Made by a program: the position numbers and the translations under genes
The notes under the pieces: generated by a model
What the model was told of the DNA's origin: nothing
What the model saw: only the letters and a program-made list of their open reading frames with translations
The model's database searches: none
Shown: positions 59,970 through 62,889 of the stretch, piece after piece
How positions within the stretch are numbered: position 1 is the stretch's first letter
Layout: each line of letters begins with the position of its first letter
DNA from: Caldisericia bacterium
GTDB lineage: Bacteria > Caldisericota > Caldisericia > JAAYUI01
NCBI GenBank assembly: GCA_963674785.1
Contig: OY771555.1
Location: 480,001-544,000 of the forward strand
Direction of reading: 5' to 3'
Length of the DNA: 64,000 nucleotides

Positions 59970-60683
59970 CTATGGAACTCCAATCGTAATCCTTTTTGTA
60001 CTGCCGTCCCAAGATACACCTCCACCAATCATTTCAGAGAAAAATCTCGACGGAACATAGGAGGCTCCGTAAATCGATGTAGCAGGCGGGTCACATGTAA
60101 CAGTTTGTCCATTGATAACACCGATATCTGCTCCGAGCTTTATGCTCGAACTCAACTTACCAAGAGTAACAACTATCTCTCTATTCTCTTCATCCCATGA
60201 AACTTCAGCTCCAAAAAAACCAGCAAACTCACGAAGAGGAACCATCGATCTACCTGAAATTATCTTTACAGGATGTGCGAGGCTTCTCGTATCCATGTTT
60301 ACAAACGCAACTCTATCATCGATTGCTGCTGAAACACTGCAATCCCTAAACACAACAATTCCACTCTCAACATATGTGTCAGAGACCTTTGCCTGTAATG
60401 AAATGGAAGTTTTTCCGGCACCAAGAGAGATATTTGAATCGAAATATCCACCGACACAGGGAATTGTTTGTCTGCCAACAGTTGCTCCATCGAGGATTAC
60501 ATCGATGTTTGATATGGACTTATCTGAGATAGAACCTTTTATATAAAGGTTTTCTGATCTGACATGTATCCCTGAGGGTGGGGAATCTATCTTTATCGTC
60601 ACTTCAAATGTCATAGCAACAAACAATAACGCAGCTATCAACAACAGCAGGGTTTTGTGAACAAAGCATGAATTTTTTGTCAT
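59970..60683 (-). CDS. Copper amine oxidase N-terminal (stalk) domain protein
   Basis: GRSMVPLREFAGFFGAEVSWD, YVPSRFFSE..GG.VSWD; signal peptide. Confidence 0.85.
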   Translation of the reverse strand: MTKNSCFVHKTLLLLIAALLFVAMTFEVTIKIDSPPSGIHVRSENLYIKGSISDKSISNIDVILDGATVGRQTIPCVGGYFDSNISLGAGKTSISLQAKVSDTYVESGIVVFRDCSVSAAIDDRVAFVNMDTRSLAHPVKIISGRSMVPLREFAGFFGAEVSWDEENREIVVTLGKLSSSIKLGADIGVINGQTVTCDPPATSIYGASYVPSRFFSEMIGGGVSWDGSTKRITIGVP

Positions 60684-60729
60684 TACTTCCCCCTTCATTT
60701 ATTTCCTTTTTCCTATATGATAGTTACAA

Positions 60730-61038
60730 ATGAAGAATGTGATAGGTTCAAGTTTTCAAGGTGGATTAAAAGCTCTTGCTGAAACAACACGTCTTAGTAT
60801 TGTGATTTTACTCTCAAAAAATAAAGAATTATCCGTCAAGAAGATAATGGAGGTACTTGGACTCACACAGGTCAAGGCATCTCAGCACTTAAAAGTCCTA
60901 AAATTTCAAGAGATCGTAAACAGCAGAAAAAGCGGTAACAGCACACTTTACTCCATCAATTCAGAGAGGGTACAAGCATTGATTACTGAGTTTCAATCAA
61001 TATTTGATAACACATCTGATTTTCCATTTAAAGAATGA
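60730..61038 (+). CDS. ArsR/SmtB family transcriptional regulator
   Basis: LKALAETTRLSI...SQHLKVL...RKSG...YSIN. Confidence 0.9.
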   Translation: MKNVIGSSFQGGLKALAETTRLSIVILLSKNKELSVKKIMEVLGLTQVKASQHLKVLKFQEIVNSRKSGNSTLYSINSERVQALITEFQSIFDNTSDFPFKE

Positions 61039-61214
61039 CACCAAATTGAGAAGTCAAAAACCAATTCAATCGAGTCATAATCGAGAGAAATTGAACTTGC
61101 TTTTTACTTAAAATGTAGTTATATTGGACTATTGACCCACATGGGGTCAAATGAAATACTTATGTTAAGAAAATGCTCAGAGATGAGATTCAAAGAGCGG
61201 AAAGGAGCAAGACA

Positions 61215-61736
61215 ATGAAGAAATTTGCAGTATTTGCACTAGTATTTGTCTTTGCGTTAAGCCTCGTTGCTGCCTCTCTCGCCCTTGCCGGTACATACGG
61301 TTGAGGAAGCGGCGGCGGTTGCGTTGCAGCCCCACCACCCCCACCACCAGCAGCGGCTGGAGGAAGCGGAAGTGATGTAGATTTGGCTTCTGACCCAACA
61401 CCAAGTTCATGGTTCAACAATGTGCTTGATGGTGACACAATCACCACCCCATTCACAATCCTTGGTGAGTATAAAGCTGAAGCTCGAATCGACACAATCC
61501 AGGTCTCCCCAGATGGCGGAGAAACATGGCTTACAGCAGAAGTTGACAAAGACACAAGAGAATGGTCACTACACATTGCTTCACCTCCAGGTGAAAATGG
61601 TGTTTACCACCTCATTTCTAGAGCAGTTGACAAAAACGGCAGAATGGAAAGAACAGTCAATCCTAACGTCGATGTCAGTCTCAGAAAAAAGCCAGTCGAA
61701 GCATATATTGTTAGAGCTGGAGCAGGCAGAGAGTAA
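61215..61736 (+). CDS. Secreted protein with in-frame UGA (candidate selenoprotein), poly-Pro linker and Ig-like domain
   Basis: AAGGAG RBS; MKKFAVFALVFVFALSLVAASLALA-GTYG(TGA 61302-4)GSGGGCVAAPPPPPP, in frame with ORF 61383-61736. Confidence 0.7.
61305..61336 (+). promoter_or_regulatory. Candidate bacterial SECIS element
   Basis: GGUUGC-GUU-GCAGCC hairpin, apical loop 18 nt after UGA, extended by flanking GG/CC pairs. Confidence 0.5.
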
Positions 61737-61759
61737 AAGTAAAATACTAGCCGCAAACG

Positions 61760-61791
61760 AAAAAAGCCACCCGATGAGGGGTGGCTTTTTT
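61760..61791 (+). terminator. Intrinsic terminator
   Basis: AAAAAAGCCACCC-GATGAG-GGGTGGCTTTTTT. Confidence 0.85.
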
Positions 61792-62002
61792 ACATTCTAG
61801 AGAGCTTTGGGAGTCTTTTTTCTTATTTGGCACAAAAGAAGCTTCGATCGATTATAGAGGTAGGAACCACACAATAATTGAAGTTAATAATGATTAATTC
61901 AATATTCATAATCGATTGATTTTTCCATAATAGGCTGTATACTTGTAGCGTAACTCGAATGTTCTCGTAAACCTTTGTATAAAAAACATAGGAGGTTCTG
62001 AC

Positions 62003-62404
62003 ATGGATATGAAATATAGCTACGACAAATCGAATAATATCATGTTTGTAAGTTACAACGGTTTGATCAGTACCACTGATGATTTAAAACAAATGAGAGA
62101 ACTCACCGACCAGATTTATAATGACGTTGCAACAAAAATATGGCTGATTGTTAACATCGCTGAGTACAAGGTGAAAAACCCGATGCTTGTTAAGGAATGG
62201 CAAAAGAGCGGCAAAAAGACCATGGACAAATACGTTATCGACGAAGTGATGATTTGTAAGAATCCCATTCAAAAAGCGATGTCTCTTCTCTTCAACACAA
62301 TTAGAGGCAAAAAGAGTCCTATCTTTAAGTCAAAAGAGGAAGCTGTTGAACACGTTTTAAAGCTACAGGAAACGGTGGGAAAGTCGAAACCTATTATTGA
62401 TTGA
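62003..62404 (+). CDS. STAS/SEC14 (SpoIIAA-like) domain protein, paralog 1
   Basis: AGGAGG RBS; C-terminal FKSKEEA motif shared with the next gene. Confidence 0.6.
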   Translation: MDMKYSYDKSNNIMFVSYNGLISTTDDLKQMRELTDQIYNDVATKIWLIVNIAEYKVKNPMLVKEWQKSGKKTMDKYVIDEVMICKNPIQKAMSLLFNTIRGKKSPIFKSKEEAVEHVLKLQETVGKSKPIID

Positions 62405-62493: not shown

Positions 62494-62889
62494 ATGGAAC
62501 ATAAAGCAGAATACGATCCAATAAAAAATATCCAATTCTTTGAGTTTATTGGGACACCGAGAGACTCAAATGATATTGATTTTCTAGTCAAAAAAAACAT
62601 CGAGGCACTCGAAAAACTAACATCAAGGGTTTGGCTTGTCACAAACTTAGGAAGTATGTCAGCCGCAAGCCCCCCATTACTTGCTGAGTTTGGTCAAAAA
62701 AGCGTGCCTATGGTTGAGAAATATGGAATAGAAGAATTTGTTCACACACACAAAAGCATCCAGAGACTTATGATTCAGATATACAACAATATCTCTGGTT
62801 CAAAAGTCAAGGTATTCAAATCAAAAGAAGAGGCGATAGAATACATACTTGAACGACAAAAAACTGTCGGAGTGATGCTCCCATTCTGA
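62494..62889 (+). CDS. STAS/SEC14 (SpoIIAA-like) domain protein, paralog 2
   Basis: AAGGAG RBS; VWLVTN...FKSKEEAIEYI. Confidence 0.6.
   Translation: MEHKAEYDPIKNIQFFEFIGTPRDSNDIDFLVKKNIEALEKLTSRVWLVTNLGSMSAASPPLLAEFGQKSVPMVEKYGIEEFVHTHKSIQRLMIQIYNNISGSKVKVFKSKEEAIEYILERQKTVGVMLPF

Follow-up and report, generated by a model that had tools for sequence, protein, structure and literature searches.

In a 64,000-nt stretch of the genome of a Caldisericia bacterium (NCBI GenBank assembly GCA_963674785.1, contig OY771555.1, positions 480,001 to 544,000), called the window hereafter, we identified a gene at 61215 to 61736 of the forward strand that is very probably a real, unannotated selenoprotein gene and the founder of a new protein family, limited so far to one lineage. 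It is predicted to code for an exported selenoprotein in which UGA 61302 specifies selenocysteine (Sec, U), and in which an arm with Sec and Cys residues is attached to an immunoglobulin-like (Ig-like) body. This explanation as a whole appears likely from the sequence analyses described here. The decoding mechanism is the known one. Coordinates are given in the 64-kb window numbering unless labelled C1, which denotes the single 2.23-Mb contig of this genome (G000); the window corresponds to C1:480001-544000. The gene has the following parts.

61215 to 61736 (+): full coding sequence (CDS) of the putative selenoprotein, translated with TGA as U; 173 residues including U30, stop codon TAA at 61734-61736
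61200 to 61207 (+): ribosome-binding site GAAAGGAG, 7 nt before ATG 61215
61215 to 61289 (+): predicted signal peptide, residues 1-25, with MKK, a hydrophobic core and an A-L-A end; all 10 orthologs have MKK and a hydrophobic stretch
61302 to 61304 (+): putative Sec codon UGA, residue 30, preceded by GTYG; TGA at the aligned position in 10/10 orthologs
61305 to 61342 (+): stem-loop resembling a selenocysteine insertion sequence (SECIS), -17.1 kcal/mol; core helix 61317-61322 with 61326-61331, loop GUU 61323-61325
61320 to 61322 (+): codon UGC of Cys36, the U-x5-C partner, inside the core helix of the hairpin
61332 to 61349 (+): run of six Pro, residues 40-45; A39 and P40-P44 invariant in the orthologs; its RNA is the 3' side of the lower stem
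61380 to 61733 (+): pre-domain segment DL.SDPTP.SW..NVLD.DT and Ig-like beta-sandwich, residues 56-173, based on conservation, a structure model and fold matches
61506 to 61529 (+): Asp-box-like motif S-P-D-G-G-E-T-W, S98-W105; S98, D100, G101, G102, T104 and W105 invariant in the orthologs

An earlier note, made from this DNA alone, had described a ribosome-binding site, ATG 61215, a signal peptide, the TGA, a linker, an Ig-like domain and a terminator, all of which are present. In the translation, U30 is followed by G-S-G-G-G-C-V-A-A-P6 and then by a Gly/Ser/Ala stretch, and the frame stays open through a domain of ~118 residues. Cleavage of the signal peptide would occur after A25, before G26. 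All 10 orthologs have a ribosome-binding motif 6-8 nt ahead of ATG-AAR-AAR, which reads GAAAGGAG in all but one of them, where it reads GAAAGGAA. The upstream ATG 61173 was considered as a start and rejected, as the ribosome-binding site and the orthologs favour 61215.

The orthologs were collected by searching 93 Caldisericota genomes with the post-TGA part of the protein. The gene was found in 10 of these genomes, its own included, all from one taxonomic family (f1), namely genus g1 (the genome under study and 3/3 others), genus g2 (4/4) and genus g3 (2/3). No ortholog match was detected outside this family among the 93 genomes; the one family genome without a match is 96% complete, and in genome G063 the ortholog is divided between two contig ends. 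The 10 orthologs are co-linear over their full length, the start, signal peptide, TGA, Cys, Pro run and domain all being kept. In each of them the upstream frame crosses exactly one TGA into the MKK signal peptide, and the in-frame codon is always TGA, never TAA or TAG. The residues around it follow the pattern aromatic-G/A-U, then G-x-G-G-G-C (g1) or C-P-(S/G)-G-G (g2 and g3), then A-P5-6. A Cys lies no more than six residues past Sec in 10/10 orthologs, at +6 in the four g1 sequences and at +1 in the six from g2 and g3. The U-x5-C motif that the earlier note had put forward holds for g1, i.e. 4/10 orthologs, but is replaced by adjacent U-C in the other six. As for what homologs have at this position, TGA faces TGA in 10/10, but no Cys form came to light.

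Were TGA 61302 a true stop, it would end a 29-residue ORF, and the Ig-like domain would be made from an internal start or left untranslated. Public gene calls do begin downstream of the TGA, and the hairpin that follows it is statistically ordinary (see below), both of which favour a stop. However, the public calls for three relatives begin at differing places and, therefore, no internal start is conserved; the first in-frame start past the TGA is TTG 61383, a GTG in the linker was chosen for another ortholog, and no ribosome-binding site precedes any of these starts. A product made of a signal peptide plus four residues makes little sense, and the domain would be deprived of a signal peptide of its own. 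Furthermore, the linker that leads from the TGA to those starts is kept as protein, as shown by the invariant A39 and P40-P44, and the frame and the TGA type are maintained in 10/10 orthologs from three genera, versus 26% TGA among the stops of long ORFs. A true stop is thus very unlikely, and gene callers miss the N-terminus of the protein, as had been predicted.

The TGA itself is genuine. Contig X3, assembled from DNA of a different study, covers 61000-61900 with no difference in the CDS, differences being found only from 61773 on; the TGA is therefore not an assembly error. Contig X1 is identical and may be the source. In RNA library X5, an 88-nt contig without differences (61266-61353) bridges the TGA, and a second RNA library, X6, contains 61503-61731; such contigs do not prove transcription. 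X5 also contains a 428-nt contig of a variant strain (61324-61752), whose nine differences are all at third codon positions, which indicates purifying selection. The possibility of a pseudogene with a nonsense mutation, or of an assembly or sequencing error, is refuted by the presence of TGA in the 10 orthologs, which come from separate assemblies, and by contig X3, and the 9/9 third-position differences also argue against it; it is almost certainly wrong.

The Sec machinery is complete, as selA, selB, selD and the tRNA-Sec gene, to which the earlier note had pointed, are all in the genome. SelA was detected with 444 bits, and SelB through its wing domain 3, within a 628-aa frame. SelD (261 bits; C1:175772-176806, +) has its own in-frame TGA, in the motif G-C-A-G-U-E-S-K, and is itself a selenoprotein. 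A single tRNA-SeC(tca) gene is found at C1:1784782-1784873, directly downstream of selB. TGA is otherwise a normal stop, as had been noted for the window, and it ends 230 of the 874 ORFs of at least 300 aa in the genome (26%). Strong SelA matches (397-444 bits) were obtained in 11/11 genomes of family f1 (G000 and G059-G068) and in 0/82 other Caldisericota, in which the only two matches were weak (51.7 and 22 bits). Within the phylum, both the Sec trait and this gene are thus limited to a single clade. The family genomes are relatives and, therefore, this association represents one evolutionary event, not many independent ones. No FdhA (TIGR01553) was found in the 11 family genomes. FdhA is the most widespread bacterial selenoprotein according to a recent catalogue (PMC13188914) and, given its wide spread, Sec machinery without FdhA in this family is unusual.

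Alternatively, near-cognate or suppressor decoding might cause the UGA to be read through as Trp, Cys or Gly. Several other ORFs of the genome with a conserved in-frame TGA, including one in a beta-propeller repeat whose sister repeats have Y, F, W, D, S or A at that position, would fit with this possibility. Nevertheless, among the 47 tRNAs found, tRNA-Sec is the only one with the anticodon TCA, TGA terminates long ORFs in the proportion given above, the full Sec machinery is limited to precisely the family in which the gene is found, and the partner Cys by the site fits Sec chemistry. We regard readthrough as highly improbable.

Past the UGA, the hairpin core GGUUGC-GUU-GCAGCC is located at 61317-61331 and its loop begins 18 nt past the UGA, with a lower stem composed of GGN (Gly) codons paired with CCA (Pro) codons. 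The bacterial SECIS consensus, as given in PMC13188914, comprises a loop of 3-9 nt, a stem of 4-16 bp and a G in the first two loop bases, with a spacing of 16-37 nt from the UGA and a minimum free energy <= -7.5. All 10 orthologs have a post-UGA hairpin within these published limits. Their loops start 16-19 nt past the UGA and have 3-5 nt with G at position 1 or 2, and the upper helix has 4-7 contiguous pairs (four before a bulge in g3). The sequence of that helix varies by genus (GGUUGC/GCAGCC, GGAGGCG/CGCCUCC or a GC-rich variant) and its position is kept. At conserved residues just after U, identical codons were counted at 44/72 positions in g1 versus 142/318 in the rest of the gene, with corresponding values of 75/84 versus 591/696 in g2 and 13/14 versus 57/82 in g3. 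This mild excess is consistent with an RNA constraint, the numbers being small.

A number of results weigh against the explanation as a whole, most of them related to the hairpin. Relative to dinucleotide shuffles, the window hairpin has a z of -1.15, and 24/200 shuffles fold as well. Synonymous recodings fold at least as stably in 81-93% of cases for g1 and g2 and in 30-31% for g3, and they pass the SECIS consensus in 12-40% (g1 and g2) or 0.2-0.3% (g3). Covariation, which the earlier note had suggested as a check, did not materialize: among the 13 pairs of the g1 hairpin, 10 are invariant, two show one-sided changes and one is broken in a single sequence, with no compensatory change in any. 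These pair counts apply within g1 only, as the ungapped cross-genus MAFFT alignment leaves the loops out of register. When the pairing is slid by 3 nt in g1, 77% of the cells still pair. An Rfam search of 61150-61850 (E <= 10) returned no SECIS family; its matches were all below threshold, and almost all of them fell on the terminator stem. Apart from the hairpin, the U-to-C spacing differs between genera, and no neighbouring gene is conserved across g1-g3 or informs function. Lastly, a homolog with Cys at the Sec position, on which most selenoprotein pipelines rely, among them those independent of SECIS, was not found. Among proteins of 95-303 aa there are three public matches, each a fragment from beyond the TGA, and none of the best 150 of the 573 matches to the ortholog profile described below is 120-369 aa long or aligned over the U position. 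A metagenome scan with the ortholog alignment identified 18 loci, all domain-only, the best with 44% identity over residues 93-157, and neither a further ortholog nor a Cys form.

The energy of the hairpin was rejected as evidence for a SECIS, given that shuffles and recodings fold as well. It is ordinary because Gly codons pair of their own accord with Pro codons that come after them. The SECIS-like hairpin described at the outset thus stands with regard to the consensus, in 10/10 orthologs, but its stability is no more than Gly/Pro codons give. In our reading, the peptide with its Gly run and its Pro run may itself be the gene's way of making a SECIS, which makes the hairpin a necessary but weak piece of evidence. 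The case for a selenoprotein is founded on TGA conservation, the single frame and the Sec machinery.

An AlphaFold model of the protein was built from a 10-row alignment, with a mean predicted local distance difference test (pLDDT) value of 60.7. It shows a helix at residues 3-24, low confidence at residues 17-65, no regular structure at residues 25-56 and a beta-sandwich at ~74-167, with block-mean pLDDT values of 73-84 over residues 71-140. The best Foldseek matches in the PDB are the C-terminal domains of SorT, SorA and the chicken, plant and Thermus sulfite oxidases (E 1.6e-5 to 3e-4), in agreement with the E-set, sulfite oxidase-like domain that the sequence had suggested; generic Ig-like and FnIII modules come next. 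By sequence, the matches are weak and stay under the cut-offs, with Big_13 at E 0.014, Mo-co_dimer at 0.026 and SorA at 1e-4, along with SorT; the Pfam gathering cut-offs are reached by neither Big_13 (16.3 bits versus 27) nor Mo-co_dimer (15 versus 22.7). A profile of the 10 orthologs retrieved 573 proteins at E <= 1e-3 among 1.84 billion representatives, the best 150 of which are mostly giant multi-repeat proteins, with five short fragments of 53-119 aa. Five of the repeat proteins were scanned, and 5/5 contain Big_13 or Big_7 domains over cut-off, several with BNR/Asp-box matches. The invariant S98-x-D-G-G-x-T-W105 motif is of the Asp-box type. Based on the model and these matches, the body is an ordinary bacterial Ig-like domain, and the special part would be the Sec arm. 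The protein shares its fold and an S-x-D-x-G-x-T-W motif with Big_13/Big_7 repeats and with the Mo-co dimerization domain of sulfite oxidase, SorA, SorT and SoxC, but it is a single domain, neither a repeat array nor an enzyme. Its C-terminus (61713-61733) is conserved across genera and ends with P/A-G-x-G/D-R/N-E/D. A homodimer prediction for residues 55-173 gave a score of 0.00, which has no bearing either way.

Searches of NCBIfam release 20.0 and of Pfam (E <= 1) detected no selenoprotein family model matching the protein, nor did the selenobacteriocin model TIGR04081 match at the same threshold. DUF1573 domains are Ig-like. The UGSC (NF041046), UGC-DUF1573 (PF07610) and protein DG GUxG (NF049953) families resemble the new protein by their short Sec motifs with Gly and Cys nearby, according to PMC13188914, but their models gave no match at E <= 1, and the motif here is G-U-G-S-G-G-G-C or G-U-C-P, as opposed to U-G-S-C or U-G-C. 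No family with this architecture or motif appears among the 119 prokaryotic selenoprotein families in the accessible part of that catalogue (PMC13188914). A literature search, whose scope excluded the supplements of PMC12013277 and of the source papers of the catalogue, found no description of the protein. The proposal of a candidate new family is thus borne out.

According to PMC13188914 and PMC12013277, the selenoproteins known from prokaryotes are for the most part redox enzymes of the cytoplasm that adopt a thioredoxin-like fold, and almost every one has relatives with Cys. The new family would depart from this pattern by having Sec on a disordered arm at the N-terminus of an exported, Ig-like protein, by the absence of any Cys form among the homologs found and by its occurrence in a lineage without FdhA. 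With known selenoproteins that depend on SelB and a SECIS within the ORF, it shares the UGA, a small loop with an initial G at 16-19 nt, the selA, selB, selD and tRNA-Sec genes and a nearby Cys; unlike them, it would have Sec in a disordered N-terminal arm, be exported and have no thioredoxin-like fold. Homology pipelines that need Cys/Sec pairs would overlook such a family, and public annotation contains fragments of it only. It would also provide a concrete example of a peptide linker, a Gly run followed by a Pro run, that can encode its own SECIS. The present analysis corrects the annotation in at least 10 genomes and points to a small, tractable protein for probing extracytoplasmic selenium in an anaerobe.

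Other genes of the lineage also contain in-frame TGA codons. At C1:1767639-1769975 (+), a gene codes for a 778-residue protein with a signal peptide, an E-P-E-U-T-K-C-P motif, BACON/HYDIN-like and Big_5 domains and a C-terminal Cu_amine_oxidN1 domain. It has one in-frame TGA in 11/11 family genomes and U-x-x-C in 11/11, and it is a candidate for a second exported selenoprotein. Two genes for PQQ_2/BamB-like beta-propellers have an in-frame TGA as well. For the one at C1:1492973-1495003 (+), the best match in 8/10 relatives has one TGA, and for the one at C1:1075355-1076509 (+) the single relative matched has one TGA, positions being uncompared in both cases. The contexts are G-T-U-D and N-S-U-T, with the sister-repeat residues listed above; these TGAs may represent Sec, readthrough or decayed copies. 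A tandem HMA protein encoded at C1 ~2137747-2138155 (+) reads M-U-P-A-C in domain 1 and M-C-E-V-C in domain 2. The genome-wide scan for in-frame TGA gives no selenoproteome count, as it missed the HMA gene and lost SelD, whose post-UGA fold failed the simple consensus hairpin filter.

According to our model of the mechanism, translation would start at ATG 61215, UGA 61302 would be read as Sec by tRNA-Sec and SelB with the help of the stem-loop of Gly and Pro codons, and translation would run on to TAA 61734. The mature protein would have ~148 residues, with Sec in fifth position and its partner Cys close by, then a disordered Gly/Pro-rich linker and a single Ig-like (Big_13/E-set) domain with an Asp-box. 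The linker seems to serve a dual purpose, as peptide stalk and as SECIS. In the cell envelope, a selenolate and a Cys would thereby be carried on a flexible arm with an Ig-like domain at its base. On a disordered arm the selenolate would be reactive without an active-site pocket, and the nearby Cys could close a selenenylsulfide. Since no Cys form turned up, the function may require the chemistry of selenium as such. Tentatively, our leading model is a reversible selenenylsulfide couple that would exchange with thiols, disulfides or polysulfides outside the cytoplasm. It would resemble the Cys swinging arm of SoxY or the C-terminal tail of thioredoxin reductase, where a Sec/Cys pair passes through a selenenylsulfide to transfer reducing equivalents. 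The likeness to the latter resides in the adjacent Cys/Sec pair on a flexible terminal tail, but the order here is U-C or U-x5-C, the arm is N-terminal and exported, and there is no catalytic domain, whereas thioredoxin reductase is a cytoplasmic flavoenzyme.

The Sec/Cys arm of the same selenoprotein could instead be a ligand of soft metals or metalloids (Cu(I), Hg, As, Ag), which it would capture or pass on in the envelope. C-U and U-C pairs recur in catalogued metal-handling selenoproteins, namely CopZ-family GxUC/CU, MbdU, SaoC, SaoL and HgcA (PMC13188914). Six of the 10 orthologs have G-U-C, the same genome encodes the HMA-type protein with M-U-P-A-C, an ArsR/SmtB-family gene adjoins the selenoprotein gene in g1, and a CopC structure is among the weaker Foldseek matches (rank 44). 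However, a resemblance of motifs is a lead, not a test. The ArsR protein has zero Cys and one His and would thus be without the usual sensing ligands, its gene is missing near the six g2 and g3 loci, and in no genus is the selenoprotein gene flanked by a gene for a metal transporter or for metal resistance. A metal-binding role, though less than probable, is nearly as likely as the selenenylsulfide couple.

It is also conceivable that the same selenoprotein is a covalent carrier of sulfur or selenium, with Se-S(n) or Se-Se adducts borne by a swinging arm, and functions as a SoxY analogue in anaerobic sulfur or selenium metabolism. SoxY has a Gly-rich C-terminal motif and an Ig-like fold. In both proteins the reactive chalcogen residue is on a flexible Gly-rich arm of a beta-sandwich body, periplasmic in SoxY, which holds intermediates on a swinging-arm Cys (PMC5336275); this is an analogy only, as the arm here is N-terminal, contains Sec and Cys and is linked to the body by ~25 residues. 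The best fold and sequence matches of the body, to domains of sulfite-oxidizing enzymes, would also be in line with a carrier. Nevertheless, there was no match to SoxY (PF13501) at E <= 1, no SoxY chain is among the Foldseek matches listed, and no sulfur-metabolism or sox genes lie beside the gene in the neighbourhoods of any genus. Moreover, the sulfite oxidase match concerns the dimerization domain only, a generic Ig-like fold that is also found in giant surface proteins. A carrier of this kind seems improbable.

Returning to the selenoprotein as such, a broader scenario may be considered, although it is speculative and rather unlikely to hold in all its parts. The family would keep its Sec machinery without formate dehydrogenase mainly for exported, envelope selenoproteins that are unique to it. 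The protein would be a carrier with a selenolate on a swinging arm, of which no Cys form ever existed, and its Gly/Pro stalk would have evolved as both linker and SECIS. The exported 778-residue U-x-x-C protein would be its partner in a relay outside the cytoplasm, either for selenium-based redox or for the transfer of chalcogens or metals.

The features that surround the gene are the following.

60730 to 61038 (+): gene for an ArsR/SmtB-type regulator; HTH_5 at 3.1e-9, NF033788 at 76.5 bits versus a cut-off of 55
61132 to 61160 (+): promoter-like site TTGACC, 17 nt, AATACT, with TG before the second hexamer; consensus match at 9/12 positions
61766 to 61791 (+): intrinsic terminator with a 7-bp G+C stem, a 6-nt loop and T6; stem 61766-61785

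The ArsR gene is directly upstream of the selenoprotein gene in the window and in G068, separated from it by two small ORFs in G067 and ~2.5 kb away in G066. It was rejected as a functional partner or as part of a metal-resistance unit, since it is unconserved beyond g1 and its product has no Cys; contrary to the earlier note, it provides no support for a metal role, and it is probably context. The neighbours in g2 and g3 are of housekeeping type, with a Metalloenzyme-superfamily protein, an acetokinase-family protein, an S-adenosylhomocysteine (AdoHcy) hydrolase and an acidic zinc-ribbon/DUF2007 protein.

The gene looks monocistronic. Six promoter-like sites were observed in the region versus 3.5 expected from shuffles, and the 61132-61160 site is a consensus match only. 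The terminator folds at -21.8 kcal/mol (z = -7.6), and 0/200 shuffles fold as well. A terminator pattern scan listed a weak site inside the CDS (61580-61595), not the clear terminator at 61766-61791. In contig X3, three base substitutions and two single-base indels at 61773-61778 fall in or at the edge of the terminator loop.

Two further ORFs of the window, 62003-62404 and 62494-62889 (+), code for proteins of 133 and 131 aa with no significant family, the best match being DUF7793 (E = 0.025). The G067 ORFs between the ArsR and selenoprotein genes code for 126 and 131 aa and have no match to this pair at E <= 1e-8. On the other strand, 59970-60698 (-) codes for a secreted 242-aa protein with a weak Ig-like part (Glucodextran_B/Big_7) and a Cu_amine_oxidN1 domain (5.7e-33). 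This gene is kept upstream of the ArsR gene in g1, and its C-terminal domain is the same as in the 778-residue Sec candidate.

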